A stretch of 32,000 nucleotides of DNA from Trichlorobacter lovleyi SZ (GTDB lineage Bacteria > Desulfobacterota > Desulfuromonadia > Geobacterales > Pseudopelobacteraceae): contig NC_010815.1 in the NCBI RefSeq assembly GCF_000020385.1, positions 45,114-77,113 of the forward strand, read 5' to 3'. Shown here piece by piece: positions 1 through 14,785 of this stretch (positions within the stretch are counted from its first letter, which is position 1; the number at the start of each line of letters is the position of its first letter). The notes beneath the pieces are model-generated. The model was not told the DNA's origin, did not search any database, and was given only the letters and a program-made list of their open reading frames with translations. Position numbers and translations under genes: made by a program.

Positions 1-1
1 C

Positions 2-631
2 GCCGCTCAGCGTGCAGGCCTTTTGGTGCCGGAGTTCCACCTGTCAGCAAACGGACGCTTGTTTGTGATGAAGCGCTTTGACGTGGGCGTTGGTGGCAGT
101 GCATTGGGATTTGAAGATATGTGTGCTCTCCAGGGGGTTGGAACCGCTCAGAAGTACAGGAGCACCTATGAGCGAGTAGCGCGCTCCATTAAGGATTTTG
201 TGTCAGGCGAGTTTCTTCAGGCTGCTCGTGAGCAATTTTTCGCTGCGCTGGTATTGTCGGTGATGGTGCGCAACGGTGATGCCCACCTGAAAAACTTCGG
301 GGTGCTGTATGACACTCCTGGGGCTCCAGTCCGGCTGGCCCCGGTGTATGACGTGGTGACAACCACTGCCTACCTTCCCAAAGATCTGCCTGCGCTCAGC
401 CTTGTCGGAACAAAAAAATGGTGGAATCGTAAACTGTTGGAGCAGTTTGCGTTGGCGCATCTGTCTCTGCCGGTGAAGAAAGTGTCCGAGACTATCGAAA
501 AAATGGGAGAAGCCGTATCAGAAACGCGGAATCTCTTGATCGCATACATTGCTGAACATCCTGAGTATCAGACAATCGGAGAGAGGCAACTTGCGGCGTG
601 GGAAGCGGGAACAGGTGAATTTGTGAAATGA
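2..631 (+). CDS. HipA-family Ser/Thr kinase toxin, C-terminal part (5' end lies outside the window)
   Basis: The frame is open from base 2 (AAQRAGLLVPEFHL...) to the stop at 629-631. It contains the HipA C-terminal catalytic-type stretch VRNGDAHLKNFGVLYD and APVYDVVTT. The track start at 23 is only a TTG inside an open frame. Confidence 0.8.
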   Translation, partial: AAQRAGLLVPEFHLSANGRLFVMKRFDVGVGGSALGFEDMCALQGVGTAQKYRSTYERVARSIKDFVSGEFLQAAREQFFAALVLSVMVRNGDAHLKNFGVLYDTPGAPVRLAPVYDVVTTTAYLPKDLPALSLVGTKKWWNRKLLEQFALAHLSLPVKKVSETIEKMGEAVSETRNLLIAYIAEHPEYQTIGERQLAAWEAGTGEFVK

Positions 632-692
632 GTAATTTTGCTCAGTCATTGAGTAAAGTGGTTTGAATGACAAGCTAGTAACATATATAGCG

Positions 693-738
693 TTAATTAT
701 TATTGACAATATATTGTTATTAAGCAAATAATAATTAA
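693..738. promoter_or_regulatory. Putative hipBA promoter/operator: perfect 12-bp inverted repeat TTAATTATTATT (693-704) / AATAATAATTAA (727-738), enclosing the perfect palindrome ACAATATATTGT (706-717)
   Basis: Repeats verified base by base. TTGACA at 703-708 and AATAAT at 727-732 (18-bp spacer) look like sigma70 -35/-10 elements. The block lies directly upstream of the hipB ATG (743). Confidence 0.6.
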
Positions 739-742
739 CATT

Positions 743-1096
743 ATGGCAGAGAAACGAACCATATCACTGTACCCTGCTTCTGAGAAGGCACTCCGTGAAT
801 TGGGGCAGCGCCTGAAAGATGCGCGTCTTCGGCGGCGTTTCTCAATGGATACCGTTTGCACCAGAGCAGATATTTCACGTCCCACCCTGTACAAGATTGA
901 AAAGGGTGAGCCGTCAGTTGTTTTTGCGGCATACATCCAGGTGTTGCGAGTCCTTGGCTTGCTTGACGACCTGGCCTTGATCGCAAAAGATGACGTACTA
1001 GGCCGTCGGCTCCAGGACGAATCCATGACCCGTCCCAAGCGCGCTCCCAAACGCACCCTTCATGTTTCTGAAGGCAAGGGGGGTGACAATGGCTAA
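743..1096 (+). CDS. hipB: XRE-family helix-turn-helix antitoxin (HipB-like)
   Basis: 117 aa with an XRE-type HTH (LRRRFSMDTVCTRADISRPTLYKIEKGE). Its stop overlaps the hipA start by 8 nt. Confidence 0.8.
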   Translation: MAEKRTISLYPASEKALRELGQRLKDARLRRRFSMDTVCTRADISRPTLYKIEKGEPSVVFAAYIQVLRVLGLLDDLALIAKDDVLGRRLQDESMTRPKRAPKRTLHVSEGKGGDNG

Positions 1097-2333
1097 GCTA
1101 TCGTCTCAGGATCACCTGCAGGTCTATCTTGATGATCCTGCCTTTGGCCCTCTCAACAACATCGGTACACTTACCCGCGGTGATCGTGGCAGTATCCGGT
1201 TTAGTTACAACCGGTTGTGGCTTGATCAGGCTCACGCCTTCCCCCTTGATCCTGAACTGGATCTCTCCGCTGGAGAATTTTACCCACAAGGCTCAAACTT
1301 CGGTGTTTTCATGGACTCTTGCCCGGATCGGTGGGGCAGTGTCCTTATGCAGCGCCGTGAGGATGTTGAAGCAAAACTTGGTGGGCGTTCCCGTCGGGCT
1401 TTGGGTACGTGGGATTATCTTATTGGTGTGCAGGATTGTACCAGGATGGGTGCTCTACGCTTTAAACGGCCTCAGGATGAAGCATTTCTGGCTTCTGAGG
1501 ATTTATCTGCTCCGCCTGTCACCCGTTTGGCTGAGTTACAGCAGATAGCCTTTGAGATAACCAACAAGAAGCTACCAGACCTTGGCCGCTTGCGTGAATG
1601 GCTAAGAGTGCTTGTTGCGCCTGGGGCTTCTCTTGGTGGCGCCAGGCCAAAGGCTAATATTATAGAAAACGATGGCAGCCTCTGGATAGCCAAATTCCCG
1701 GCACGTGATGATTCTGAGGACATCGGCGCTTATGAGAAGCTGATCCATGACCTTGCGCGCGAGAGCGGCATTGATGTTCCTGAATCGCGTCTTGTGAGGG
1801 TAGGGGATGGCTACCATACATTCATGGTGAAGCGATTCGACCGAGAGCTGGACAGCCGACGTTTTTTCTCATCAGCAATGCCGCTGTTGCGCAGAACTGA
1901 CTCTGAAGACGCCAGCTACCTTGAACTGGCTGAGTTTATCGCTAACTACGGTCATATTGATCATATTGAAGACGATCTGGAAGAACTGTTCCGCCGTGTC
2001 GTATTCAACGTTGTTGTGGGCAACAGGGATGACCATCTTCGTAATCACGGATTTATCCGCATTCCGGCCGGGTGGCGGCTGGCGCCGGCATTTGATATCA
2101 ACCCTTCTACCAGTAAGGATGAGCATGTCCTGGCACTGGATGCCTATTCCAGACAACCAGACCTGGATGTAGTGATCTCAACTGCTGATCTCTATCGTCT
2201 CAGTCCTCAAAAAGCGAAGCAGATCATCCAGCAGGTCTGTGATGTTGTGAGTGGCTGGCGGACAAAAGCCAAGCGTATGGGATTATCTGCTCAGGATTGC
2301 CTAGTGCTGGAACAGTGTCTGCTGGTTTCTTGA
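1089..2333 (+). CDS. hipA: Type II toxin HipA-family Ser/Thr kinase (full length)
   Basis: Start refined to ATG 1089 (MAKLSSQDH...), preceded by a GGGGGG Shine-Dalgarno. It has an N-terminal HipA-coupling-type region (PDRWGSVLM) and the C-terminal motif GNRDDHLRNHGF / LAPAFDINPS. Confidence 0.9.
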   Translation: MAKLSSQDHLQVYLDDPAFGPLNNIGTLTRGDRGSIRFSYNRLWLDQAHAFPLDPELDLSAGEFYPQGSNFGVFMDSCPDRWGSVLMQRREDVEAKLGGRSRRALGTWDYLIGVQDCTRMGALRFKRPQDEAFLASEDLSAPPVTRLAELQQIAFEITNKKLPDLGRLREWLRVLVAPGASLGGARPKANIIENDGSLWIAKFPARDDSEDIGAYEKLIHDLARESGIDVPESRLVRVGDGYHTFMVKRFDRELDSRRFFSSAMPLLRRTDSEDASYLELAEFIANYGHIDHIEDDLEELFRRVVFNVVVGNRDDHLRNHGFIRIPAGWRLAPAFDINPSTSKDEHVLALDAYSRQPDLDVVISTADLYRLSPQKAKQIIQQVCDVVSGWRTKAKRMGLSAQDCLVLEQCLLVS

Positions 2334-2352
2334 AGCAGGGTAGGGGAGTCGT

Positions 2353-2607
2353 ATGGTTACAGACAAGCGATTCAGCGACTATGGTGTTTGCGAACTGGCA
2401 AAGATAGAACCATCCCTGAATCAGAAACGTTACTACGGCATCTCAATCCAGCCAGGCCTGTTTGAAATCATCCTGCACCGGCAATGGGGTAGGTTAGGGT
2501 GCCGGCCACGTTCCATGGATGAATATTTTAACAGCATAGAGCTGGCAGTGGCAAAAGCAAACAGCCTGTATGGGGCAAAGACCCGCAAAGGGTACAGAGA
2601 GGTTTAA
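2353..2607 (+). CDS. Small stand-alone WGR-domain protein
   Basis: 84 aa with the pattern NQKRYYGISIQPGLFEIILHRQWGRLG...KTRKGY, typical of short WGR-domain proteins. GGGGAG Shine-Dalgarno; starts 19 nt after the hipA stop. Confidence 0.75.
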   Translation: MVTDKRFSDYGVCELAKIEPSLNQKRYYGISIQPGLFEIILHRQWGRLGCRPRSMDEYFNSIELAVAKANSLYGAKTRKGYREV

Positions 2608-3308
2608 ACAGGTTGGACAGGGGCATCTGCCCATGGTTCATTCCCGCGTAAAATGTTTTCTGTGCCAGGTGTGCTGTAATGAGTAGCATCCAAAGTCCTG
2701 TTGGCCCGTTTATCGTATTTGCCTGCAATACTGGCAAGGCCGTTATTTTTCAAAGCATCTGTGTAATGCCCCACCATATTTGAAAAATCAGACTGTAGTT
2801 TTTCATTTTTCTTGACGAGACCATCAATCTCAACAATGTATGCAGATCTTTTTGCTGCAAAATCTGATTCAAGTTTGGCAACGAGTTTTGCGTAATGCTC
2901 TTCCAGATCAAGTTCTTTGTGGACAATCGCATCGTATTTTTCTTTGGCTGCGGCATACAAGGACTCAGCATCCATACGTAATTTAAAGCAGGTTTTCTCA
3001 TTATCCTTGCGGAATTCTGCAACGCTGGTGTGAGCGTCACACTTAATTTCTTCAGCCCTTTCCCGGGCACGGTTGATTTCATCTTCAGCAATTTCCTTAG
3101 AATTATTTTGGAACCAGAAATACGACCAAATGACGAAGGAAAGGCCTAACGATACAAAGATAATCACAATAATTGTTGGAAAAGCTTTGTTAAAAGAATG
3201 TGCAACAAAATCTAAGGTCGTAGCATCTGGATGTGTAGCCGTTTTATAAATATATGTAGAGAGATAAAGGCCAATAACACCGGTAACGAGTCCTTTAAAA
3301 AATTGCAT
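2604..3308 (-). CDS. Hypothetical membrane-anchored coiled-coil protein (two N-terminal TM helices), third gene of the orphan operon
   Basis: 234 aa. Hydrophobic segments GLVTGVIGLYLSTYIY and FPTIIVIIFVSLGLSFVIWSYFWF are followed by a long charged heptad-like region. GGGAGGA Shine-Dalgarno; the start ATG directly follows the upstream stop (TAAATG at 3306-3311). I recognise no family. Confidence 0.6.
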   Translation of the reverse strand: MQFFKGLVTGVIGLYLSTYIYKTATHPDATTLDFVAHSFNKAFPTIIVIIFVSLGLSFVIWSYFWFQNNSKEIAEDEINRARERAEEIKCDAHTSVAEFRKDNEKTCFKLRMDAESLYAAAKEKYDAIVHKELDLEEHYAKLVAKLESDFAAKRSAYIVEIDGLVKKNEKLQSDFSNMVGHYTDALKNNGLASIAGKYDKRANRTLDATHYSTPGTENILRGNEPWADAPVQPV

Positions 3309-3818
3309 TTAGTTCTGTCCTCCCTTCTCAGCAGTCAGCTCAATAAAACAATTACGTAAATATCCAAAAGTGAAGTTTTTCTTGTGATGAATTCGGATGT
3401 AATCAGCTATCTGACGCCAGCTTAATCCCTGGGATTTGAGGGCGGCGATCTCCTCATAGAATCTGATACGAATCAGTTCCTTTTTGGGAGCTGATTTTAC
3501 TCTTTTCTGAGCCTTTAATCGTTCAATTCTAAGCTGCGTAATTTGAATAGACTCTTTATCATTTAACGACTTTTTTTGCGTGTGAGCTGTCTCAGTCCAA
3601 TGCATTTTGTTTAAAGCCAATATCAGCATTGCATAGTAAAATTCGTGCCGATATTGTTTATCGTATCTATCGCGGTGTTGGTTTGCAAGGTCACCTTGCA
3701 GCCTAATCGCCTCAATTTTGATTGTTTCTCCCTGAGTCGAGAACCAGTCAAAAAGAGATTGCCGTTTTTGCCGGGTAATACCGCTTAAGTTGTCGATATA
3801 CTTTTGAGTGATACTCAT
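3309..3818 (-). CDS. Hypothetical protein with a C-terminal HTH-like segment, second gene of the orphan operon
   Basis: 169 aa. The C-terminal LSWRQIADYIRIHHKKNFTFGYLRNCF resembles a Hin/LuxR-type HTH. Its start overlaps the upstream stop (ATGA at 3815-3818). I recognise no family. Confidence 0.55.
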   Translation of the reverse strand: MSITQKYIDNLSGITRQKRQSLFDWFSTQGETIKIEAIRLQGDLANQHRDRYDKQYRHEFYYAMLILALNKMHWTETAHTQKKSLNDKESIQITQLRIERLKAQKRVKSAPKKELIRIRFYEEIAALKSQGLSWRQIADYIRIHHKKNFTFGYLRNCFIELTAEKGGQN

Positions 3819-4039
3819 GGTTTATCGTGTTTCAATACCTCAGCACATATAGGAGATGACTCAATGACCGCTTTAATGCCATCTGCAAAAATTGTGTCAA
3901 AATTATAGCCGTTATTCTTGATGAACGATAGTACAAATGCAGACACTTTGCGGTTGAGAACTTCTTTTTGTTTCCTTTCTTCGTTGCGCGCTTTTTGCAG
4001 TAGTTTTTCTGCCTTTTCTCTTAACTTTACTGGATCCAT
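3815..4039 (-). CDS. Small highly charged hypothetical protein, first gene of the orphan operon
   Basis: Start refined to ATG 4039 (MDPVKLREKAEKLL...), preceded by AAAGGA. The track's longer 98-aa N-terminus has no Shine-Dalgarno and reads as AT-rich junk. K/E-rich helical N-terminus. Confidence 0.5.
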   Translation of the reverse strand: MDPVKLREKAEKLLQKARNEERKQKEVLNRKVSAFVLSFIKNNGYNFDTIFADGIKAVIESSPICAEVLKHDKP

Positions 4040-4216
4040 TTGATATCCTTTCTTGTGCTTTATTTTGTATAAATTACACGTATAATATACAAAATTCAAA
4101 TGAAATAACATGTACTGTTAAATCAGTATGTTATAAAGTTTAAAAAAAGAAGCCTAAAGCGATATATTAAAGGGTAAAGACAAAATCAAAAGCTTGACAT
4201 CTAAATAAAAACAATC

Positions 4217-4236
4217 TACAGAATAATTATTCTGTA
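4217..4236. promoter_or_regulatory. Perfect 20-bp palindrome TACAGAATAATTATTCTGTA: operator or recombinase core-type site
   Basis: All 10 base pairs verified. It lies in the AT-rich intergenic region between the orphan operon and the recombinase gene. TTGACA at 4194-4199 lies 17 bp upstream. Confidence 0.5.
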
Positions 4237-4483
4237 ACATTGGACCCAACCAAACAAATGGGCGGCGCTTTCAGCCTCTCTCGCCGTTAACCTAGCAGAG
4301 GTTTAAGGCTAATGCTCCAGGCCTTTTGTCGCAAGGCAATAAAAGGAGTGAATGCTGTAGTTCCAGTTGTTATGGGGCTCGGCAAGAGCATACCGCTTTT
4401 GCTCAAAAATAAAGCGTTGGGTTCAAGCATGTTTCCCTGGCTAAGGGGCAAAATAAATTTTAGCCGTCAGAGAGTGGAAAGAT

Positions 4484-5419
4484 ATGAGAGGTTCAGTTGC
4501 ATATCAGGTGCAATCTGTTTACGAGTATGTATCCGAGATCGGAACATCGAAACATGAACAGAAGTCTGTAGCTCGTAGCAATGGTGCAAAAACGTGGCAT
4601 CAGATAGGCAAGCATCTTGGTGTTATGTCCTATTCAACCGGTGATGCCTATCGTGATGTTTGGCGGCAGGTACTTAAATTTGCAAAAGAGCAGTTTGGAA
4701 TAAAAGATATTGAAAAGCTTTCAGGCTCACACCTGAAGGCTTTTTTATTGAAGAAAATAGATGGTGGTGTTGCCCACGCCACTCATGCTCAATATGCAGC
4801 AGCTTGTGAAAAACTTGAAGTTGCATTAAACAGGCTTGCTCAGATCAATAAAACAGAGCATGTGTATGAATTCTCAGCAAGTATAAAAGAAGCCCGCAGT
4901 GAGGCAAGTTCACTGAAACGTTTTGAAGGCTCACGAGCCTATGTAAATCCTGATAGTCTTGTGCAGTCAGTTGATTCAGATATTTTTCAACTAGCAGCCG
5001 CAATCCAGCGAGAAAGCGGAGCAAGGATCAGTGAGGCTAATCATATAAATAAGGAGCAGCTAAGGGGTATTAGAAGAGATATATATAGCGGTAAGGAAAA
5101 GGGTTGGATTCACGTTGAAGGGAAAGGTGGGAAAAAACGCGAAATTGCGGTTTCTCTTACTACATATACTCGGTTACAACAAATTCTTTCTAACGGCAGA
5201 TTTGAATTTGATAAAGACGCGTATCGTAACGCCCTTGAAAAGGCAGCAGAACTGACGGGTCAATCTTATGAAGGCAGTCATGGGCTACGGTGGTCATGGG
5301 CACAGGAGCGGCATGCCATCCTGCAACAACATTGTCTGACCTATGAACAGACACTTTCGCGAATTTCCCAAGAGATGGGGCACGAACGAGGAGATATAAC
5401 GGAGCACTATCTGCGTTAA
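4484..5419 (+). CDS. Tyrosine site-specific recombinase (phage-integrase family, Cre/ResD-like size)
   Basis: 311 aa. Catalytic signature in order: ESGARISEA (Arg), GSHGLRWSWA (His-x-x-Arg), GHERGDITEHYL (His...Tyr). Confidence 0.75.
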   Translation: MRGSVAYQVQSVYEYVSEIGTSKHEQKSVARSNGAKTWHQIGKHLGVMSYSTGDAYRDVWRQVLKFAKEQFGIKDIEKLSGSHLKAFLLKKIDGGVAHATHAQYAAACEKLEVALNRLAQINKTEHVYEFSASIKEARSEASSLKRFEGSRAYVNPDSLVQSVDSDIFQLAAAIQRESGARISEANHINKEQLRGIRRDIYSGKEKGWIHVEGKGGKKREIAVSLTTYTRLQQILSNGRFEFDKDAYRNALEKAAELTGQSYEGSHGLRWSWAQERHAILQQHCLTYEQTLSRISQEMGHERGDITEHYLR

Positions 5420-5436
5420 ACAATCACTTAGTCTGG

Positions 5437-6450
5437 CTACGGCTTAACCGGTATCTGCTGAGTATACCTTGCTTTTCCCCGTTCCTGTACATGGCTGTAT
5501 TTTGCCGCCATGGCAATGCTGGCATGGCGTAGCGTTTCCTGCACAACCTTCACATCCCTGGTGGCTTGATAGAGCAGGGCGCCACAGGTATGCCGTAAGG
5601 CGTGACACCCTCGGCCTTTCTTGGTTATTCCTGCCTTGGCCAACATCGTATCAATCCACTTTGATAGTCCGATCCGGGTAATCCTTCCCCGTACCTTGTC
5701 TCCTTTGGACAGAGAAACAAAGATCGGCTCTCCGTCCTTGTCGGACTGTACTGGCCCGCGCTGGATCAGGTAGTTCTGGATACAGGCAACCGTATCTTCT
5801 CGTGGGTAGATGTAGCCATCCTTCCCTTTGCCATGCACCAGGATCCGGACACCAGAGTCGGTCTCTTCGATGTCCTCCAGATTGGCCCGGCAGATCTCAA
5901 TCCGGCGTAGACCTTCCAGGGTCATCAGTGCTGCCATGGCGCGGTCACGTAGACTTTTGAGCTTGTGGTCGTGGGGGATAGCCTCGAAGAACCGTTCCGT
6001 TTCACCGGCAGTCAGGCACTTGATGATCTCGGCATCAGCTGTCCGCTTGCGGGGAGCCTTAACCCCATTGACTGGGTTGGCCTCCAGTAGCCCCCGTGAG
6101 ACGGCGCCATCATAGAAACGTCTGACCGTGGTCAGTTTCAGGCTGATCGTCGCATGAGCGGCTCCGCTCTGCACCAACTCCTGACGGAACGCCTTGAGGT
6201 GGGTTGTCGTGGCGTGACCCGGATCGATATTGTTTACCCGACACCAGTTCAGCCAGTGATTGAGATGGGAGATGTAGGTCGCAATGGTGTCAGGTCGGGC
6301 ATCGCCGTTGGCCACGTCCAGGGCGAACCATTCGGCAGCTTGGTCGATCAGATCCGGAACATCTGCTGCTACCGGCAGGATTTCATGGACAACTGCCGGA
6401 AGACCGGCTTCAAAATCTTCGATCTGAGGCGTTTTGGGGTTTTGGGCCAT
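5437..6450 (-). CDS. Tyrosine recombinase, XerC/XerD-like (possible TnpI-type resolvase for the adjacent Tn3-family transposase)
   Basis: 337 aa. Motifs LEGLRRIEICRANLEDI (Arg), CHALRHTCGALLY (His-x-x-Arg) and LRHASIAMAAKYSHV (His...Tyr), plus an N-terminal SAM-like domain. Confidence 0.85.
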   Translation of the reverse strand: MAQNPKTPQIEDFEAGLPAVVHEILPVAADVPDLIDQAAEWFALDVANGDARPDTIATYISHLNHWLNWCRVNNIDPGHATTTHLKAFRQELVQSGAAHATISLKLTTVRRFYDGAVSRGLLEANPVNGVKAPRKRTADAEIIKCLTAGETERFFEAIPHDHKLKSLRDRAMAALMTLEGLRRIEICRANLEDIEETDSGVRILVHGKGKDGYIYPREDTVACIQNYLIQRGPVQSDKDGEPIFVSLSKGDKVRGRITRIGLSKWIDTMLAKAGITKKGRGCHALRHTCGALLYQATRDVKVVQETLRHASIAMAAKYSHVQERGKARYTQQIPVKP

Positions 6451-6464
6451 ACCTTAGGTACCCC

Positions 6465-6695
6465 CTAAATTGTGACCTGAAAATGTTTTACGCCGATTTG
6501 AGATAAAAACGAGGCAACTTCGTCCAGAGAGTCAAACTGCAGCGGCTGATCATTTTCAGGTAAGGTGACCGGTCCGGCATAGTCGCCATTTGCATGTTGG
6601 ACGCCAACCCCGTAGCAGTTGCTATGCAGATGTCGGGCGATGATAGTCAGCTCTTCATTGTTTAGAATCAATTTTTGTATTTCGGCACCGGTCAA
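6465..6695 (-). CDS. Small hypothetical protein co-transcribed with the recombinase at 5437..6450
   Basis: 76 aa. TTG start with AGGAGG 9 nt upstream; ends 14 nt before the recombinase ATG. I recognise no family. Confidence 0.4.
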   Translation of the reverse strand: MTGAEIQKLILNNEELTIIARHLHSNCYGVGVQHANGDYAGPVTLPENDQPLQFDSLDEVASFLSQIGVKHFQVTI

Positions 6696-6949
6696 GCTGA
6701 ATTTCCTCCTGTAGGATCTCTTTAGGAGGTTTATACCACACTTTGCTAATTTAGTATATATAAGGGTAATTATGTATATTAAAAAACAAACAAAAAGTGG
6801 TCAATCCACTGTTGTTAACTGTGTGCCATTATCTACTGCCATTCATTCGAAGGCCCAATGACCCGGTAGCTGCATATCTGGCCATCTGTTGATAAGAGCT
6901 AAATCGTGATACTTTGCAGACTCTTTTAAATGATAATGGGGAGTCTGCC

Positions 6950-9874
6950 ATGAAAAAAGTTTGGGATACTGATGAATTGGCTACACATTGGTGCTTAACG
7001 TTTGAAGATCACCACCTTTTAAAAAACAAATTGCTCAAAAACCATCTTGGGTTTTCGATCCAGCTTAAGCATTTTCAGTATAGCGGAAAATTTTTACATA
7101 CCCATTCTGATATCTCAACCCCTCCCCTTGAGCATGTGGCTGAACAGCTCAATGTTTCAGTTTCTGATTTTGAATCATACGATTTCAATAGTCGCACCGG
7201 GCGACGGCATTGCATTGAAATCCTGAACTATCTCGGAATCCAGCGCCTGACCTCGACAGACAAGGACGCTTTTTCTGATTGGCTTCGACAAGAAATTTTC
7301 CACCAAGGGACGACTATTTCTGAGGCCATTGAGTTGGCTTATGATTGGTTCAAAAAACAGAAAGTTGAATACCCCACTGAGGCCGTATTGGAGCGCCTTG
7401 TCCGATCTGCCTTTTATCGCTACGAACAAGAATTTTTCAACCAGATCATCCGTGAACTACGACCTTCAGCTAAAGACAAGATGGATCATTGCCTTGAGAA
7501 TGTTGAAAGAGGTATCGAATTTGGTCGTTTGAAAGCTGATCCAGGCCGCGTCGGTCTGGAGAGTGTCTTGGCTGAAGTTGAAAAACTCCATTTCATACAG
7601 TCTCTTGACCTTCCACAGGGTCTCTTTCAAACCTGTAACATTAAAGCCTTAACGCACTACTATCAACGGGTCAGCAGTGAAAGTGCCTGGAGGGTCAAGG
7701 AACACCCGCCTGAAATCAGATATGCCCTGCTGGGGGTTTTTCTCTTTTTCCGGCAGCGAGAAATCATAGATGGTCTGATTGAACTCTTCATCCAGATTGT
7801 TCACCGCCTCACAGTTAAAGCTGAACGGAAATTGATCAAGGAGTTGCTAAGTGATTTCCGGAAAGTCCATGGAAAGAGCACCCTCCTGTTTAGAATTGCA
7901 GAGGCGGCACTCTTAAATCCTGAGGGGCGGGTGAAGGATGTCGTCTACCCTGTTGCTGGGGAGAATGTGCTGCAAAATCTGCTCAAAGAGTTCAAATCTT
8001 CCGGCCCTGGCTACAGACAGCAGGTTCATAAAATCATTCGTTCCTCTTATGGCAACCATTATCGGCGCATGGTTCCGAAAATCCTTGAAGCTCTTTCCTT
8101 CTGCTCAGGCAATACGCAGCATCGACCTGTGCTGGAAGCGCTGGAATGGATTCAACATAACCGTGACAACTCTCAACGTTTTATCCCGCTGGACGAGGGT
8201 ATTCCGATAGACGGTGTTATTCGCAAGCAAGATCAAGAAGTGGTACTCGAAGAGGATGCTCAAGGTAGAGAGCGAATCAACCGTATCAACTATGAAATCT
8301 GTGTCCTCCAGGCTTTGCGTGACAAACTTCGCTGTAAAGAAATCTGGGTGATGGGCGCTGACAAGTTTCGTAACCCAGACGAGGATCTACCAGCCGACTT
8401 TGAGGACAAACGCGAGGATTATTACCTCGATCTTGGCCATTCGACAGACAGCTCAGAGTTCATCGAGAAAATTCAGGAACGGATGCGCTCGGCTCTTACC
8501 GAGCTTGACGAGGGCATTCCGAGAAATCAGAAGGTTCGGCTTCTCAATAGAGGTAAGAAGAACATATCCATCACGCCTTTCGAAGCCCAAGAAGAACCGC
8601 CAAGCCTTACCGCGTTGAAACGGGAAATCGCTGGTCGGTGGCCAATGACCAGTTTGCTCGATGTGCTCAAAGAAGCGGATTTGCGAGTTGGCTTTACCGA
8701 TCATTTCAAGACTGTTGCTGATCGAGAGATTCTTGATCGGCAAAGTCTGCAACGGCGGTTGTTGCTCTGTCTTTATGGGATGGGAACCAATACTGGTCTA
8801 AAGCGGGTCAGCGGCAACCGTCACGGAATCAGCTATAAGGAGCTGCTGCATGTCAGGCGACGCTACGTTCACAAGGCTGCCCTCCGGAATGCTATCGGCC
8901 AAGTCGCCAATGCCATTTTCAGCATACGCAACGCCGATGTCTGGGGAGAGGGTTCAACTTCTTGTGCTTCCGACTCAAAGAAATTCGGCTCTTGGGATCA
9001 GAACCTGATGACGGAATGGCATATCCGCTACGGTGGTCGCGGAGTCATGATCTACTGGCACGTCGAAAAGAAATCGACCTGCATCTATTCTCAATTGAAG
9101 CGCTGCTCTTCCTCGGAAGTTGCCGCCATGATCGAGGGTGTCTTGCGGCACTGTACAGACATGACGATAGATCGGCAGTATGTTGATAGTCACGGGCAAA
9201 GCGAGGTGGCTTTTGCTTTCTGCCATCTGCTTGGCTTTGATCTCCTGCCGAGATTGAAGGCGATTGCCACACAGAAACTCTACCGTCCTGACGGTGACGC
9301 AACCGAGGCCTTTCCGAACCTGGAAAGGATCATGACCCGCCCGATCAATTGGGAGCTGATCAGCCAGCAGTATGATGAGATGGTCAAGTACGCCACCGCA
9401 CTGAAACAGGGAACCGCCAACCCGGAAGCCATACTACGACGATTTACCCGCAACAATATTCAGCATCCGACCTACCGGGCGCTCTCCGAACTCGGTAAAG
9501 CAGTGAAGACGATATTCTTATGTCGCTATCTCGGCTCGGAAGCCTTGCGGCAGGAAATTAACGAAGGTTTGAATGTCGTTGAGAATTGGAACAGCGCCAA
9601 TTCTTTCATCTTCTACGGTAAGGGCGGCGAAGTCGCCACCAATCGTTTGGAGGACCAGGAGTTGTCAGTCTTGGCCCTGCACCTGCTGCAGATCTGCTTG
9701 GTCTATGTCAATACGCTTATGATTCAGCAGGTTCTGACCGAACCGGCTTGGCATTCGCGGATGAAGCAAGAGGACTACCGTGCTCTGTCGCCACTGATTT
9801 ACAACCACATCAATCCATACGGCATCTTTGAGCTGGATATGGATTTGCGGTTGCCGATTGAGTTAGTTGCTTAG
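6950..9874 (+). CDS. tnpA: Tn3-family DDE transposase
   Basis: Start refined to ATG 6950 ([11 protein letters not shown]...) with GGGGAG 6 nt upstream. 974 aa, typical Tn3-family length. C-terminal DDE region: [53 protein letters not shown]...NEGLN. Confidence 0.9.
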
Positions 9875-9907
9875 CGTAGTTTTTCGTACCGATGGGCTTC
9901 ACTTGCT
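9870..9907. repeat. Tn3-family terminal inverted repeat (right end), overlapping the tnpA stop
   Basis: CTTAGCGTAGTTTTTCGTACCGATGGG... aligns by eye with the inner part of the canonical Tn3 IR read inward-to-outward (CTTAACGTGAGTTTTCGTTCCACTGAG...). The canonical outer GGGG/CCCC end is absent at 38 bp; GGCCC occurs at 9911-9915. No partner IR was found in the window. Confidence 0.55.
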
Positions 9908-10456
9908 TTTGGCCCTGACGGCATTGATGTATTTATAGAGGGTTGGTTTGGAGATGCCCATCATCTGGCAGATTTGTTTTACGGTATGGTTCTCTTCATC
10001 GTAGAGCTTAACTGCCAGGGCCTGTTTGTCGGCAGACAGTGATTTGGGGCGGCCTCCTTTTTTGCCTCTTGCTCGTGCCGCCGCAAGTCCGGCCTGCGTG
10101 CGTTCTCTGATTAGGTTGCGCTCGAACTCGGCCAAAGCGGCAAAGATGTGGAAGATCAACTTCCCGGAACTAGAACGAGTATCGATTGATTCATGCAGAC
10201 TCTTCAGGCCGATATCGCGGGACTCCAGAAGGGAAACCATTTCGATAAGATCTTTCAGGGAACGGCTCAGACGATCCAACCGCCAGACAACCAGAGTATC
10301 GCCTTCTCTGGCGTGACTGAGCGCCGCTGCTAAACCGGGACGCTCAGCTTTTGCTCCGCTGAGCTTGTCTTCATGGATCTGTTGACAGCCCGCTTGCTCC
10401 AGAGCATCTTTTTGTAGAGCTAGCTTTTGATCGTCGGTAGATACCCGAGCATATTC
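9899..10456 (-). pseudogene. Serine recombinase (resolvase/invertase family) lacking its first codons and any start codon
   Basis: Hand translation of the frame upstream of the track ORF gives (E)YARVSTDDQKLALQKDALEQAGCQQIHEDKLSGAKAERPGLAAALSHAREGDTLVVWRLDRLSRS..., with a C-terminal HTH ISKPTLYKYI. There is no ATG/GTG/TTG in frame between 10456 and the internal TTG at 10279. Confidence 0.75.
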
Positions 10457-10923
10457 CCCAGGATCTGCACATCCCCTACATAATCCATCTCTTCTTCCAT
10501 CATATAATATTTGATGGCATCGACACCGTTCTGGCTTGCCGGGAACATGGGGATGCTTTTGGGAATACAGTAGGTCACAATTGCACCACCCGGCTTTCCC
10601 TTCATGTGGGCAATACCATGACGGTTAGGGTAGAGCCGCTCGATGAACGCCTTAGTCCGGGAATCAAGTGTCGAATAAGGAGTGTAACCAGCGATGATCA
10701 GTGCATCGGACTCTTTCACCTTCTCCGTCAACTCGAAACCATCATCCTTTATCACACATTGGCCGGTCTTTCTGCATCCCAGGCAAGCTCTACATGGCTC
10801 TATTGTATAATCTGTCAGCTTGATGAATTCCGTTTCCAGACCAGTCGACTCCAGAGCGAGTTTTAGTGCTCTATCAGTATTACTATTTCGGATTGGAGAA
10901 CCGGATACGCCTAATACCTTCAT
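10420..10923 (-). pseudogene. Iron-sulfur flavoprotein (Isf)-like NADPH-dependent FMN reductase paralogue 1, 3'-truncated
   Basis: Start refined to ATG 10923 (GGAGGAAAGT upstream). MKVLGVSGSP... with the compact Cys motif C-x2-C-x2-C-x5-C (PCRACLGCRKTGQC). It aligns with the paralogue at 29605..30246 up to ...DVQILG, then reads 11 unrelated codons into the resolvase remnant. About 45 C-terminal residues, including the second Cys cluster, are missing. Confidence 0.65.
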
Positions 10924-10946
10924 ACTTTCCTCCACTACTGGGTGTA

Positions 10947-10975
10947 GCACCGGGCCATAGCCGTATGCCCGGTGC
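10947..10975 (-). other. Perfect 9-bp stem-loop (GCACCGGGC ... GCCCGGTGC, 11-nt loop) between the AhpD-like and Isf genes
   Basis: Complementarity verified. It lies 11 nt downstream of the stop at 10986. There is no U-tract, so it is not a classical terminator. Confidence 0.3.
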
Positions 10976-10985
10976 CTGATTTACC

Positions 10986-11441
10986 CTATTTCTTTTCCCA
11001 GGCGAATTTCTCAAACGCTCTATCAATCGGGGTTTCAGCAATATGATTGACGTAGTTGCTGATCACTTTCTGCGAAAGCCCCAGAATGATTTCCAACAAT
11101 TGCCTTTGCCCGTAACCGGCGGCATAAAATGCTTCAACTTCATCTTTTGACAGTTCACCGCGTTTGCGCACTACAGCCAAAGTCGTGTTCTGCAGCACTT
11201 GCAACTTGTCCGTCGGCATCGGCTCTTGGTTGCGAAGTGCCTCAGTCAGTGCCGGGTCCACCTTCATCATTTTGGCAACCCCAGTATGGGCAGGAACGCA
11301 ATAGGTGCAGTTATGTTCGACGTTGATGGTCTGCCAGACAACCGTCAATTCCTCGGCGTTATCCGGCACCATTTTGCGCAGGGTCTCTTCGCCCCCTTTA
11401 CGCTTTGCCGCACGCTGATAGATCTGTTGGAATGTTTGCAT
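10986..11441 (-). CDS. Carboxymuconolactone decarboxylase (AhpD-like) family protein
   Basis: Start refined to ATG 11441 (AGGAG 5 nt upstream). Has the AhpD/CMD-type motif NCTYCVPAH. Confidence 0.65.
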   Translation of the reverse strand: MQTFQQIYQRAAKRKGGEETLRKMVPDNAEELTVVWQTINVEHNCTYCVPAHTGVAKMMKVDPALTEALRNQEPMPTDKLQVLQNTTLAVVRKRGELSKDEVEAFYAAGYGQRQLLEIILGLSQKVISNYVNHIAETPIDRAFEKFAWEKK

Positions 11442-11473
11442 CACTGCTCCTGGTTTTTTTAAAAAATAAAACC

Positions 11474-11749
11474 CTAACCTGCTGCAAAGTGTTTTGTCAG
11501 ACCCATTATTGCATAGGCAGAGTTTTTCCCTGACCCTTCGATCAAACGGCTGAACCAGGCACAAATCCTATCTTCTAGCTTAATCGCAAAGCCCAAGAAG
11601 CCTTCAGTTCTTGCTGTATCCAGAATTGTTACCCAAGGAGCCTCTGAGTAAACTTTACTTGCTGTTTCAGAGTTCTCTGGAACACCTGTCTGGCCAAGTA
11701 GAACCGCCGCCTCAAAGGCAAATAATGAATAGAGTTCCTTGTCTGTCAT
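11474..11749 (-). CDS. Hypothetical protein
   Basis: Start refined to ATG 11749 (GGAGA upstream). 91 aa, sits in the operon between the DoxX-like and AhpD-like genes. I recognise no family. Confidence 0.4.
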   Translation of the reverse strand: MTDKELYSLFAFEAAVLLGQTGVPENSETASKVYSEAPWVTILDTARTEGFLGFAIKLEDRICAWFSRLIEGSGKNSAYAIMGLTKHFAAG

Positions 11750-11806
11750 TTTAGTTTCTCCAATCATTTTTTATATTCCACTAAGAGACGATTTCGCACC
11801 TTTAGG

Positions 11807-12259
11807 TTAAATTTTCCCCAGGACTTCTTTTCCCCTGAGAATGGTCCGTCCTGCATTCCTGTACAGATAGACATTCAGGAAAACCATCAGCAGAGTAAAT
11901 ACGGTCAGCAAAGGGGCCTTCTTCTCAAATGGCAAAACTTCAGCTGGAACCGCTGGGTGCAAATGAACATAGAGGGCGACAAGCATGATCACAGTTACGG
12001 CAAGGTTCCCGCCGTAAAAAATTTTCTTTGCCCAAGAAGGAGTGATTTTCTCCCACAAAAAGAGAAAAGCAAGAAGCGTTAAACCAACGGTAATTTCCCC
12101 CAGTTGCCCACTCCAAAAAGTGAGAGTCGAGAAAGGCAGTCCGCTTCTGTCGATTTGGGTCGTAAAAAATGTTTTAAATGGTTCGAAAAATTTAACCGTA
12201 CCAGGCACAAGCATGATTGCTCCGAGATACCCGGTGATGATCCTTGTTGATTTTGTCAT
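11807..12259 (-). CDS. DoxX-like integral membrane protein
   Basis: Start refined to ATG 12259. About 150 aa with four hydrophobic segments and a DoxX-like N-terminus (ITGYLGAIMLVPGTVKFFEPF). Confidence 0.5.
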   Translation of the reverse strand: MTKSTRIITGYLGAIMLVPGTVKFFEPFKTFFTTQIDRSGLPFSTLTFWSGQLGEITVGLTLLAFLFLWEKITPSWAKKIFYGGNLAVTVIMLVALYVHLHPAVPAEVLPFEKKAPLLTVFTLLMVFLNVYLYRNAGRTILRGKEVLGKI

Positions 12260-12329
12260 GATCTTTTCCCTATTCACGCATGTTGAGTTTATAAAACTGC
12301 AGATGTGCACCCCTGCAATCACGCCCACC

Positions 12330-12396
12330 TTGAACGCTCATTCAAGCTAGCGCCGACACGAGCCCCTGTCAACACTTTTTTGAGTGATCATTCAAG
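12330..12396. promoter_or_regulatory. Divergent promoter region with two 17-bp operator-like boxes, TTGAACGCTCATTCAAG (12330-12346) and TTGAGTGATCATTCAAG (12380-12396)
   Basis: The boxes are 50 bp apart. On the minus strand, -35 TTGACA (12367-12372) and -10 TAGCTT (12344-12349) have a 17-bp spacer, and box 1 overlaps the -10. The region lies between the DoxX operon and the divergent TetR gene. Confidence 0.6.
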
Positions 12397-12457
12397 AAAA
12401 TAGTGTATAGTGTAAAAAAGTTATTGAGATTAGATGATTGAAAGCAGAGGACAACAG

Positions 12458-13030
12458 ATGGCAAGAGCACAATTTGACAGAGAAGAGATAATCGATAAAT
12501 CGATTGGGCTGTTTTGGGAGAACGGATATAGCGCCTCCTCAATGCAGAAGGTGGTGAAAACTACCGGACTTAAGCCTGGCTCGATCTATTTAGCTTTTGG
12601 CAATAAAGAAGGTTTGTTCAGGGAAGCACTGGAGAGCTACGCACGTAAAACGATCGAGGCAATCCATCATTTGATGGCAACTGCACCCAGCATCAGCGCG
12701 GGGATTTGTATGTTCCTCGAACAAAAAGTAGTGGAGTCGACACAAAAAACCTACTGCAGCTGTTTCCTGGTCAAGACCCGTCTTGAACTGGCAGCCGAGG
12801 GAGGCGAACTGCATGAGTTGGCCTCCTCCAAACTGGATAAGATTGAAGAGGTTTTAGAAGGTTATATTGACAAAGAATATGGCAGTGAAGTGAGTAAGCA
12901 GAGGGCCATCAGCCTGATGATGCATATCTTCGGGGTGAGGGTGTATGGCTACCAACAGGGTTCTGCCGACCGAATGCGGCTTGGCTTGAAAGAAGGTTTG
13001 CCCTGGTTGCCATGGGAAACGCTCAATTGA
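12458..13030 (+). CDS. TetR/AcrR-family transcriptional regulator
   Basis: N-terminal TetR HTH (GYSASSMQKVVKTTGLKPGSIYLAFGNKEGLF). ATG 12458 has AGAGGA upstream; an alternative ATG is at 12434. Confidence 0.85.
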   Translation: MARAQFDREEIIDKSIGLFWENGYSASSMQKVVKTTGLKPGSIYLAFGNKEGLFREALESYARKTIEAIHHLMATAPSISAGICMFLEQKVVESTQKTYCSCFLVKTRLELAAEGGELHELASSKLDKIEEVLEGYIDKEYGSEVSKQRAISLMMHIFGVRVYGYQQGSADRMRLGLKEGLPWLPWETLN

Positions 13031-13062
13031 TCTCTTTGTAAATTATCAGCCTTTATCAGCAA

Positions 13063-13094
13063 GGGGCCGTATCATTTACGGCCCCTTCTTTGTT
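13063..13094 (+). terminator. Rho-independent terminator after the TetR gene
   Basis: GGGGCCGT (13063-13070) pairs with ACGGCCCC (13078-13085) and is followed by TTCTTTGTT. Confidence 0.7.
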
Positions 13095-13099
13095 GCAAA

Positions 13100-13435
13100 C
13101 TAAATCAAAAAATAAGCAATCCCCAAACCGGCTGAGGCAGTTACCAGCAAAAGAGTCCAAATCAGCGTGGAACCTTTGCCTCGGACAATCATCTCAGCCA
13201 TCACCACCAGCCCTACTCCACCAACGGCCTTTATCAGTACAAACGAGCTAAAAGGCAGTGTGGCAAACAGATAACATCCCGAGATGAGAATCAGAGCGTA
13301 CCCAACATAAAGAACTTTGTGAGCAAACTTTTTGACACTTTGCTGGTTGGCAAAAGCTGCCGAAAGAAAACTGACGATAACCAGTAGTGCAGAGAAGAAA
13401 TGGGGCGGTTGGTTGATCAGTGCAAATGAGTTCAT
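13100..13435 (-). CDS. Small hypothetical membrane protein (about 4 TM segments)
   Basis: 111 aa, almost entirely hydrophobic segments. I recognise no family. Confidence 0.5.
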   Translation of the reverse strand: MNSFALINQPPHFFSALLVIVSFLSAAFANQQSVKKFAHKVLYVGYALILISGCYLFATLPFSSFVLIKAVGGVGLVVMAEMIVRGKGSTLIWTLLLVTASAGLGIAYFLI

Positions 13436-13519
13436 AGCCTTTTCCTTTACTTTGTTGTGGTTAGCAAATACGAAGTCTCATGGTTTGAACTCAAAATAAG
13501 TCACAAGCCAAGGCTAGTC

Positions 13520-13535
13520 TGTAGCCGCTGTTACA
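13520..13535. promoter_or_regulatory. CRP/FNR-spaced palindrome TGTAGCCGCTGTTACA
   Basis: TGTAG-N6-TTACA (9 of 10 palindromic positions), intergenic. Centre is 92 bp upstream of the ATG at 13435 (minus strand). Confidence 0.45.
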
Positions 13536-13585
13536 ACGAGGGAAAAAGGGGATGATTTTCAAACGGAGGTAATTTTTCTTCCACC

Positions 13586-13601
13586 TGTAGCAGGCACTAC
13601 A
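13586..13601. promoter_or_regulatory. CRP/FNR-spaced palindrome TGTAGCAGGCACTACA
   Basis: Perfect TGTAG-N6-CTACA, intergenic. Centre is 130 bp upstream of the ATG at 13724 (plus strand). Confidence 0.45.
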
Positions 13602-13723
13602 GAAGGATGAGAAAAGAAGCAGTAGGCTGCGTTCATCACCTGAGCCCTGTACGTTTCGTCCGGACGTCACCGGATGATACATACAACCTTTTCGCAGGCG
13701 CTCAAAACTGAAAGGAAAAGACC

Positions 13724-13960
13724 ATGAACGTAAAAGCTGAAATCAAGACTCAGATCGCTGGTGCCCTGGCTGGTGCCGAGTTCCCTATCGCTTCGCCGGA
13801 AGCCTTGCTGAACGCTTTCCCGAATGGCGCTGATACCACCTGTGAGTGTGGTGATGTCAAACTACGCGCCGGTGACGCGGGCAGCGTACTGACCGCATCT
13901 GACTTCCCGTTTGAAAGCGCAGAATCTGTTGCAGACACTATTGTCTCTCGCGCCTTTTAA
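13724..13960 (+). CDS. MTH865-like family small protein (function unknown)
   Basis: 78 aa. The pattern IAGALAGAEFPIASPEALLNAFPNGADTTCECGDVKL...DAGSVLTASDFPFESAESVADTIV matches my recollection of the MTH865 family. AAAGGAAAAG Shine-Dalgarno. Confidence 0.55.
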   Translation: MNVKAEIKTQIAGALAGAEFPIASPEALLNAFPNGADTTCECGDVKLRAGDAGSVLTASDFPFESAESVADTIVSRAF

Positions 13961-13975
13961 GCATTTAAGCAAAAC

Positions 13976-14014
13976 GGGGGACGGGGCATCAGCGCCCGCG
14001 TCCCCCTGTTTTAG
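13976..14014 (+). terminator. Rho-independent terminator after the MTH865-like gene
   Basis: GGGGGACG (13976-13983) pairs with CGTCCCCC (13999-14006) and is followed by TGTTTTAGTATTTT. Confidence 0.75.
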
Positions 14015-14158
14015 TATTTTGCAGGAGGTTAAAACACTAACCAAGAGCCGTCCACGTCACTCCCGGTTAGTGTTTCAACGTCCTGTTAGTGGTATATTTC
14101 AAGCATCGATCCTCATACATACGACGTACCAGCTTATTTCGGGTACTGTGGGCAAAGC

Positions 14159-14785
14159 TTAGTCCTTTAGTCGCAACCCCAGATTTCTTCCAAGGAAACG
14201 CGCTTCCTCGATTTTCCCGACCTGCCTGGAAAGATCAGGGATCATGTCTTCGGTGACCTTGGCATTCGGTCCGAACAGCTTCTTAATTGCGCCAACCTTA
14301 CAGGTTTCACCGTCTCCGCACTTGAAACAACTGGCGGGGCCTTGTGCTGTCACCGTTCCGAGGTGCTGAATCTGGTTGTATTCAAAGAATTTCTCTATGT
14401 TTCTGGCGGGTGCTTCAGGGTTGCGTCCGCCGACCGAAACAACCACCCCTAGTTTTCCTGCGATCTCGTCTCCATCTCGGTGGCGAAACTGGTAGAATCT
14501 CTCCAGAAAACAGTGGCCCAGACCGCCGATCATGTCGAAGTAGTTGGGCGCACCAACAACCAAGGCGTCAGCGGCAACTATCTTTTGCCGTAGTTCTGCC
14601 ATATCGTCTTTAATTACGCAGACGTTATCTTTCACGCATCCCAAACACCCAATGCATGGGCCAATCCGTTTTCCACTCAGGGGAATGAACTCAGTTTCGC
14701 ATTCCGTTGCGCCTAATACTTCCTGGACCAGCCTGTCGGTTGTTTGCCCACGGCGAGGACTTCCCGAGATACCCAGTACTTTCAT
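14159..14785 (-). CDS. Iron-sulfur flavoprotein (Isf)-like NADPH-dependent FMN reductase paralogue 2
   Basis: Start refined to ATG 14785 (MKVLGISGSPRRG...). Has the compact motif PCIGCLGCVKDNVC and a second cluster, SCFKCGDGETC. Confidence 0.75.
   Translation of the reverse strand: MKVLGISGSPRRGQTTDRLVQEVLGATECETEFIPLSGKRIGPCIGCLGCVKDNVCVIKDDMAELRQKIVAADALVVGAPNYFDMIGGLGHCFLERFYQFRHRDGDEIAGKLGVVVSVGGRNPEAPARNIEKFFEYNQIQHLGTVTAQGPASCFKCGDGETCKVGAIKKLFGPNAKVTEDMIPDLSRQVGKIEEARFLGRNLGLRLKD

Follow-up and report, generated by a model that had tools for sequence, protein, structure and literature searches.

In transposon Tn4651, a tyrosine recombinase is accompanied by a divergently encoded helper protein that has no homologs elsewhere, and the recombination site has two pairs of inverted repeats with promoters between (PMC7157771). 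This arrangement, the TnpS/TnpT-rst system of the Tn4651-group transposons, is the closest described counterpart of a locus that we analyzed in a 32,000-nucleotide (nt) stretch of Trichlorobacter lovleyi SZ DNA (contig NC_010815.1, positions 45,114 to 77,113; hereafter the window). Here three consecutive open reading frames (ORFs) on the minus strand, which we label A (4039-3815), B (3818-3309), and C (3308-2604), diverge from a gene for a 311-amino acid (aa) tyrosine recombinase, which we label Rec311. By analogy the two systems are alike in layout, with no detectable homology between them. On balance we favor the reading that positions 2604-5419 constitute an undescribed two-component site-specific recombination module serving multimer or cointegrate resolution and stability, of which the A-B-C trio would be the helper arm. 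A first-pass annotation of the window had proposed instead that the trio is a self-contained defense, exclusion, or addiction module, and had treated the recombinase as mere neighborhood. Its fallback, accessory functions in the maintenance of a plasmid or an integrative and conjugative element, is close to what the evidence presented below favors.

Relation to Described Recombination Systems

Both here and in Tn4651 a tyrosine recombinase gene diverges from a helper gene, and inverted repeats and both promoters lie between the genes (PMC7157771). TnpT consists of a KfrA_N DNA-binding domain and a long coiled coil; indeed, the tnpT gene of pWW0 (L091, 14464-15462) matched Pfam KfrA_N at 2.6e-26, with a long coiled coil following. 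In the window the predicted DNA binder, B, and the coiled-coil protein, C, are separate genes, and the parallel is a loose one. Rec311 aligned with TnpS at a BLASTP E-value of 6.5, indicating the general superfamily fold only. A profile of B gave an hhalign probability of 0.1% against pWW0 TnpT, and there was no KfrA_N match in B or in 59 members of its family. Further differences are the length of the spacer between the B operon and the recombinase gene (445 nt in the window compared with 180 nt in Tn4651), the structured leader RNA within that spacer, and the membrane protein that is often part of the module. A Tn3 transposase is absent from 17 of the 18 independent loci at which we found the module (below), arguing that the module is not a Tn3 component. 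In the window tnpA lies 1.5 kb from the module, with two genes between, and has its own serine resolvase.

Plasmid stability regions provide a second comparison. The resolvase in the parCBA-parDE region of RK2/RP4 is a serine recombinase, and at cer the host XerCD recombinase acts with ArgR and PepA. The module resembles these regions in its occurrence on plasmids beside ParA and toxin-antitoxin (TA) genes and in having a single site per replicon, placed between divergent operons. The RK2 and cer regions both lack a helper like B, a partner protein that is a membrane-bound coiled coil, and a structured leader.

B and Rec311 Form a Conserved Divergent Pair

B adjoins and diverges from a Rec311 homolog in 18 of the 19 independent loci with enough flanking sequence. 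The pair was found in L011, L012, L013, L015, L016, L018-L021, L023, L024, L026, L028, L029, L031, and L034, and over the linked loci recombinase identity ran from 87% down to 33%. Even a distant member of the B family (profile E-value 8e-19) was linked in this way, its recombinase being 33% identical to Rec311 and its 7.4-kb contig carrying a rolling-circle Rep gene. The single exception was an Aliarcobacter plasmid with a 38% identical recombinase. The orientation of the module was constant in all 18 loci. On comparative sequence grounds, the recombinase and B are the core of the module. The trio, by contrast, was for the most part not recovered as a syntenic unit in the gene-neighborhood search: A was confined to the closest clade, and C was replaced in about half of the loci. 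This result speaks against a self-contained three-gene system, and the recombinase proved to be the invariant divergent partner of B rather than a bystander.

The loci lie in plasmid or island maintenance regions marked by Rep, ParA, and TA pairs, which fits a stability function. The complete plasmid paDPRO carries the module with parA directly downstream of the B-C pair, and the contig from which the window is taken carries RepA_C and ParA. TA pairs stand beside the module in most loci, and the neighbors over all loci include hipBA (twice), MmeI, RES-Xre, SMODS, BrnTA, HigBA, Fic, and type I and type III restriction-modification systems.

The abundance of TA and restriction genes nearby could also be taken to mean that A-B-C is an autonomous defense, superinfection-exclusion, or three-component addiction system in which C is the effector and B the regulator, a notion to which the membrane anchor and fast divergence of C and the lack of an assigned function for A, B, and C also lend themselves. 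We consider it improbable. The link between B and the recombinase holds to 33% identity and even where no C-like gene is present (L092, L024, and L028), A is missing from most loci, and the conserved intergenic elements are common to both arms. In addition, no toxin or nuclease domain was found in the trio, and no relative of B was found in viral contigs. When A, B, and C were compared with the PADLOC-DB 2.0 defense models, A and B matched none and C matched only the coiled-coil tail of ZorA (E-value 0.0023, 14.6 bits), which is coiled-coil noise. Nor did any toxin or antitoxin family rise above noise in Pfam, NCBIfam, or PHROGs. What speaks for a defense or addiction function is only its neighborhood.

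A different view of the same contexts is that the module serves a small integrative element as its cassette for integration and excision, with Rec311 as integrase, B as directionality factor or repressor, and the third gene together with TA or defense genes as cargo. L021 lies in a 121-kb contig of a metagenome-assembled genome, L024 is beside an HTH_17 protein and a 510-aa integrase, and L013 is beside a 464-aa integrase. Moreover, the gene after B varies, and the block is a compositional island. We regard such a cassette as unlikely though credible. Rec311 has no arm-binding domain and is most similar in fold to Cre and XerH, the module is also found on replicating plasmids (including paDPRO and the 7.4-kb Rep-encoding contig), and neither flanking direct repeats nor second half-sites were detected in the window. 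The flanks of L034 are those of the window, so an insertion boundary is not definable.

Rec311 Is a Cre/Xer-like Recombinase with Unusual Termini

Rec311 (4484-5419, plus strand) gave weak matches to Phage_integrase/SAM_1 and XerC models; in Pfam, Phage_int_SAM_1 was above cutoff and Phage_integrase below it. An alignment of 21 family members shows no variation at the catalytic residues R181, K214, H266, R269, H300, and Y309. The AlphaFold2 model (predicted local distance difference test (pLDDT) score 91) has a two-domain fold made up of a SAM-like core-binding domain and a catalytic domain. The best Foldseek matches of this model were to Cre-loxP complexes (E-value 5e-8), XerH-difH, and IntI, with E-values ranging to 4e-6. 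Rec311 therefore belongs to the simple recombinases, which lack an arm-binding domain. The matches to the phage P1 Cre-loxP and XerH-difH structures (E-values 5e-8 to 1e-7) had a TM-score of ~0.57 and 15-18% sequence identity. Rec311 shares with Cre and XerH the two domains, the absence of an arm-binding domain, and the full R-K-H-R-H-Y active site. It differs from them in stopping two residues past the tyrosine, in an extra conserved stretch of 45 N-terminal residues, and in being accompanied by a helper gene and a leader RNA.

Both termini of Rec311 are unusual for Cre/Xer-like enzymes. The whole family ends two residues past the catalytic tyrosine (..EHYLR/K stop). In Cre and Xer proteins the C-terminal helix beyond the tyrosine contacts the neighboring subunit and holds the tetramer together. 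At the other end, the N-terminal 45 residues of the family are basic and strongly conserved (MRGSxxxQVQ..SKHxAKExAR..TWH). At 90% identity the family comprises more than 839 clusters. In some sources its members carry the name "phage integrase N-terminal domain-containing protein," and small non-mobilizable plasmids harbor more distant relatives of the recombinase.

B Is a Candidate DNA-binding Helper

Gene B (3309-3818, minus strand) encodes a protein of 169 aa that is predicted to be all-helical, with a helical domain at the N terminus and a three-helix helix-turn-helix at the C terminus (HTH; GLSWRQIADYI...). Homologs of B were found at 37-86% identity, the L034 protein being 83% identical to that of the window, and an exhaustive profile search placed 536 representative clusters in the family. 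Nothing matched B at curated threshold in Pfam, NCBIfam, PHROGs, or PADLOC. However, residues 114-145 gave weak matches to HTH_38 (E-value 0.012) and HTH_23, HTH_32 reached 2.5e-6 in members of the B family, and weak HTH_38 or HTH_32 matches were present in 10 of 59 family members. These are HTH families of the transposase/homeodomain type; the first-pass suggestion of a C-terminal HTH in a DNA-binding protein is therefore retained, but not its assignment to the LuxR type.

The AlphaFold2 model of B (pLDDT 84) shows three terminal helices. Comparison of this model by fold with PDB and BFVD structures returned nothing below an E-value of 1, and the B profile had no match among PDB sequences. 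There was likewise no match by tblastn in the plasmid collection and no relative by pattern search in the viral contig collection, and a scan of species-representative genomes returned one locus only. We also considered B and C as a pair of extracytoplasmic function sigma factor and anti-sigma factor. This candidate was rejected, because a search at E ≤ 0.01 found neither Sigma70_r2 nor Sigma70_r4 in B or in any of 59 members of its family and there was no fold match in the PDB. Taking its sequence features together with its linkage, B is most likely a conserved helper of the recombinase, either a DNA-binding helper or a regulator.

The Intergenic Region Contains Positionally Conserved Palindromes

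The spacers of 14 loci were aligned, and each was searched for palindromes. From the B side to the recombinase side the spacers share a layout of three inverted repeats (IR-1, IR-2, and IR-3, the last lying over a TTGACA box), a promoter, and the leader. The positions of the palindromes are kept while their sequences change.

IR-1 of the window (4062-4095, ATTTTGTATAA-N12-ATATACAAAAT) is 23-56 nt upstream of the A start codon. Over the aligned loci the distance from IR-1 to the gene that opens the B operon is 25-55 nt, and IR-1 has 9-15-bp arms around an AT-rich center, as in TCTGTGCGCCATAAT|ATTACGGCGCACAGA of L021; the short arms and AT-rich center give it a lox/dif-like geometry. A palindrome occupies this position in 12 other loci, with differing sequences. 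IR-1 is unique in the window, where 0 copies are expected by chance, and one copy per window is as expected for a resolution site. IR-1 may be either the operator of the A-B-C promoter or a candidate crossover site.

In most loci IR-2 is a full palindrome, CGCTTTAGG..CCTAAAGCG, with a variable center, ~45 nt upstream of the -35 box of the recombinase promoter, and it is recognizable even in the most distant locus. The window has an IR-2 half-site at 4152-4161 (GCCTAAAGCG). IR-3 overlaps the conserved TTGACA, which belongs to a sigma-70-type promoter pointing at the recombinase (4194-4222, plus strand; -35 box TTGACA at 4194-4199, 17-nt spacer, -10 box TACAGA at 4217-4222). Of the 14 loci in the alignment, 12 have the TTGACA, and a TAnnnT box follows it after 17 nt; in L013, for instance, this box reads TATAAT. 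Two further repeats are specific to the lineage of the window. One is an inverted repeat at 4105-4134 (ATAACATG-N14-TATGTTAT); the other is a perfect 20-bp palindrome, TACAGAATAATTATTCTGTA, at 4217-4236, which overlaps the -10 box and start site of the recombinase promoter and is absent from the 88% identical relative L034.

Some simple tyrosine recombinases act as DNA invertases, among them FimB/FimE and the Cre-like switches that invert hsdS. A palindrome-rich, promoter-bearing spacer flanked by divergent genes would suit an enzyme of this kind, and Rec311 might flip the intergenic segment and thereby phase-vary A-B-C or the recombinase itself. This is very unlikely, as a single orientation was observed in all ten assemblies of the lineage, which come from different samples and contain neither a rearrangement nor an inversion, and in all 18 loci. 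Furthermore, the palindromes are single sites and not two separated inverted copies around a segment.

A Structured Leader RNA Precedes the Recombinase Gene

The promoter is followed after ~250 nt by the recombinase start, and most of this interval is a structured 5' leader of ~240 nt (4230-4472, plus strand) that ends 11 nt before the start codon. Conservation of the leader extends over 15 lineages. The leaders of the window and L034 are 93% identical, compared with 73% for the rest of the intergenic region. Its elements in the window are P1 (4240-4253), P2 (4263-4286), P3 (4314-4349), P4 (4354-4383), P6 (4382-4402), a single-stranded block, AAAGCGTTGGGTTCAAG, at 4411-4427, and P7 (4439-4465) with the conserved loop GGGGCAAAATAAAT.

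RNAalifold applied to the whole leader in a MAFFT alignment of 12 loci returned two short helices only. This weak result arises because insertions and deletions break the alignment, and folding per clade and tests of sub-regions were therefore needed. RNAalifold per clade, together with folding of individual segments, gave a series of hairpins that agreed between the two clades. The loop of P1 contains an invariant CCC, the stems of this hairpin being UUGG/CCAA, CAGG/CCUG, CGGG/CCCG, or AGG/CCU, and the stems of P2 are CGGUG/CACCG, CGGCG/CGCCG, CAGUG/CACUG, or CGUUGG/CCAGCG. P3 is a two-tier hairpin, P4 and P6 are hairpins, and P5 is an optional hairpin. Between P6 and P7 there is an invariant single-stranded block, AAAAAGCGUUGGGUUCAAG. 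In the terminal hairpin, P7, the arms vary in at least 7 ways around a nearly constant loop, GGGGYAnAYAAAU.

Two of the helices were tested against controls. For P2, in an alignment made from sequence only, 98.3% of cells were paired, a value reached by 0 of 500 shuffles and compared with at most 63% in slid controls; both-sided changes were present in three of the five pairs. For P7, in a model-fitted alignment, the covariation score was 0.399 against 0.207 for shuffles (0 of 500 reached it) and at most 0.201 for slid controls, with compensatory changes in six of the seven pairs. G-U pairs occur only on the recombinase-sense strand, which argues for an RNA and not a DNA palindrome. The single-sequence fold of the window leader was only modestly above shuffles (z = -2.3). 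A covariance model, R1, of the 72 nt at the 3' end of the leader found one locus that had not been used to build it (L028, E-value 3e-4) and had no match in the three most distant loci searched. A candidate pseudoknot helix, GCCUUC/GAAGGC, is present in several loci and was significant in no single sequence.

None of the 4227 covariance models of Rfam matched 4040-4500 at E ≤ 1, and the three matches elsewhere in 2300-7000 were microRNA or small nucleolar RNA noise. An 18-nt leader motif gave 55 matches in viral contigs, all attributable to chance and none beside a recombinase. In most loci P7 ends 7-33 nt before the start codon. Two loci have an extra small ORF between the leader and the recombinase start (L011, 6757-6999, 80 aa; L021, ~6860-7000), and in these the leader precedes a two-gene operon.

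In IS110 elements the bridge RNA, a conserved and structured non-coding RNA, is reportedly encoded just ahead of the recombinase gene, and the leader likewise is a structured RNA directly upstream of a recombinase gene. By this likeness the leader might serve the recombinase as a functional RNA partner, either as scaffold or as guide. The leader has its own conserved promoter and is conserved as much as the protein, and Rec311 has basic, conserved N-terminal residues and no usual C-terminal tail. We nevertheless attach very little probability to such a partnership. A literature search found no tyrosine recombinase that uses an RNA, whereas the IS110 enzyme is of the DEDD/serine type. No locus-specific complementarity was found between the leader or its loops and the intergenic DNA palindromes, and the loops and single-stranded blocks of the leader are invariant, the opposite of what is expected of a programmable guide. 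There are also no transposon ends, and P7 abuts the ribosome-binding site, fitting regulation in cis.

A broader proposal, speculative and doubtful, is that the leader represents a novel structured RNA class that serves one family of Cre-like tyrosine recombinases. It might be a switch that senses a ligand or protein and permits recombination in a particular cell state only, or, more boldly, an RNA subunit or scaffold of a recombinase-B complex that replaces the missing C-terminal tail, and with B, C, and A it might form a membrane-tethered recombination machine of an undescribed kind. Rfam has no entry for a multi-hairpin RNA before a tyrosine recombinase; were the leader to control or assist recombination, a very well-studied class of enzymes would gain a further layer. 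The leader is the most interesting part of the module and, together with the unusual termini of the recombinase, the part most worth experiment.

Proposed Function of the Module

The maintenance contexts, the simple Cre/Xer-type enzyme, and the single site per locus together suggest a function in resolution or stability, with B as helper or regulator. The genes, their linkage, the intact active site, the predicted fold, and the conserved DNA and RNA elements are observed; for the cut site, the outcome of resolution, and the binding partners we infer the following scheme. Rec311 would recombine two copies of a site in the intergenic region when the replicon has dimerized or formed a cointegrate, and plasmids and integrated elements would in this way be kept monomeric and stably inherited. 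B would bind the palindromes as an architectural helper, as a repressor of the two divergent promoters, or as both, in the manner of TnpT for TnpS at rst. The leader RNA would set the level of recombinase translation. C, as a membrane-anchored coiled coil, and A, as a small helical protein, would be accessories that vary between lineages and probably bind either B or the synaptic complex, and other lineages would have swapped them for different genes.

Several observations count against a resolution module. Defense and TA genes are frequent neighbors, as a defense function would also predict. Some loci look chromosomal or lie beside other integrases, a setting compatible with integration and excision. 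IR-2 is reduced to a half-site in the lineage of the window, and the crossover site is only a candidate. The ten contigs of the same lineage are collinear, and no recombination product is seen among them. Finally, since Rec311 ends two residues after its tyrosine, it may work differently from Cre and Xer.

Site-specific recombinases with dedicated helpers decide the stable inheritance of plasmids and genomic islands and are a source of genome-engineering tools. The module pairs a compact Cre-like enzyme with an unstudied helper family of more than 500 sequence clusters. It also calls for caution in annotation, in that small genes of unassigned function among defense and TA genes may be maintenance machinery of mobile elements and not defense systems.

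Genes A and C Are Lineage-variable Members of the Operon

A, B, and C are all real genes: each has homologs, and the gene callers used for other assemblies give the same 74-, 169-, and 234-aa products. The first-pass description of three minus-strand genes with coupled junctions agrees with the sequence, which contains the ORFs, the ATGA overlap of the A stop and B start codons (3815-3818), and TAAATG at the B/C junction (3306-3311). It had also credited each gene with a good Shine-Dalgarno sequence. This is correct for A (AAAGGA) and C (GGGAGGA); B has none within the 13 nt before its ATG (ACGATAAACC), and its translation therefore probably relies on the ATGA overlap. The view of the trio as uncharacterized, co-transcribed cargo of mobile DNA stands. 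None of the three genes matches a family in Pfam, NCBIfam, PHROGs, or PADLOC. The term "orphan" is wrong if it is taken to mean that relatives are lacking, the B family having the 536 clusters noted above.

Gene A (3815-4039, minus strand) encodes a K/E-rich helical protein of 74 aa. An alternative reading from 4111 is also open and would give 98 aa; however, the A homologs begin at the MD..KLREKAEKLL residues, which supports the start at 4039. Homologs were found only in L012, L014, L015, L023, and L034, which form the closest clade (recombinase identity of at least 68%), and A of the window is 77% identical to that of L034. No match at curated threshold was obtained for A in the four collections named above. 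A is a lineage-specific addition to the module.

Gene C (2604-3308, minus strand) encodes a 234-aa protein with an N-terminal membrane anchor followed by a long K/E-rich helical region that is probably a coiled coil. Two transmembrane helices had been assigned to it. One, at approximately residues 43-66, is strong (mean hydropathy 2.4), whereas the N-terminal hydrophobic stretch (residues 1-21) is weaker, at ~1.0, and is stronger in homologs; the coiled coil is probable. In the same four collections C matched nothing at curated threshold, all matches being coiled-coil noise.

A word-indexed search returned only two homologs of C. In 9 of 18 lineages the gene after B encodes a C-like protein. 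Proteins of this kind have two hydrophobic segments around a [FY]F[IV]A[NHS]xF motif and then a long charged helical region, and they diverge fast, with 21-27% identity where B is 44-60% identical. Elsewhere the third gene is not C-like. In three loci it encodes a soluble family of 301-371 aa with a K/E-rich helical tail at the end (L011, 8136-9041; L020, 2300-3253; L021, 4595-5680), and in the others it encodes unrelated proteins; a Pfam scan of the third genes of other loci assigned no family. C is thus a frequent but replaceable third gene.

Composition and Genomic Setting

The GC content of A, B, and C is 0.378, 0.398, and 0.403, respectively, compared with 0.49 for the neighboring WGR-domain gene, 0.517 for hipA, and 0.562 for the integrase at 5437-6450. 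The AT-rich segment recognized in the first-pass annotation is therefore real, but it does not end at 4111. GC content stays low in the intergenic region (0.24 to 0.43) and is 0.435 in the recombinase gene (4484-5419), making 2604-5419 the compositional unit.

An 86-kb Trichlorobacter lovleyi contig encodes the exact B protein, as do several metagenome assemblies, and one gene order is common to them all: RepA_C, ParA, HU, an MmeI-type restriction enzyme, two hipBA pairs, WGR, C-B-A, and the 311-aa gene, followed by a 337-aa integrase, a 76-aa gene, a Tn3-family transposase, and a resolvase. The replicon with this gene order is most likely a plasmid. Nucleotide searches of the plasmid and Escherichia coli collections gave no match to 2400-4500, and the matches to 1-12000 were to Tn3 and resolvase fragments only.

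To the left of the module, the WGR-domain gene (84 aa, 2353-2607, plus strand) converges on gene C, the stop codons overlapping by 4 nt, and this overlap is kept in L034. Two hipBA-like pairs lie farther left, one at 743-2333 and the other beyond the edge of the window. To the right, 5437-6695 (minus strand) holds an ordinary XerC/XerD-like integrase of 337 aa (Phage_integrase E-value 1e-21, GC content 0.56) and a 76-aa ORF upstream of it. This pair separates the module from the Tn3-family transposase gene and is absent from all other module loci.

The transposase ORF (6700-9874, plus strand) opens at a TTG codon at 6914, and gene callers elsewhere give a product of 974 aa. A search of 6600-14500 for Tn3 terminal inverted repeats gave none. 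Within 6731-6886 several contigs of this lineage from metagenomes break off, suggesting a repeat boundary there. Four short-read contigs from different samples (L007-L010) end within gene A or just before the spacer of 24% GC (window positions 3880-4035); these ends probably reflect strain variation or low coverage of AT-rich DNA and not rearrangement.

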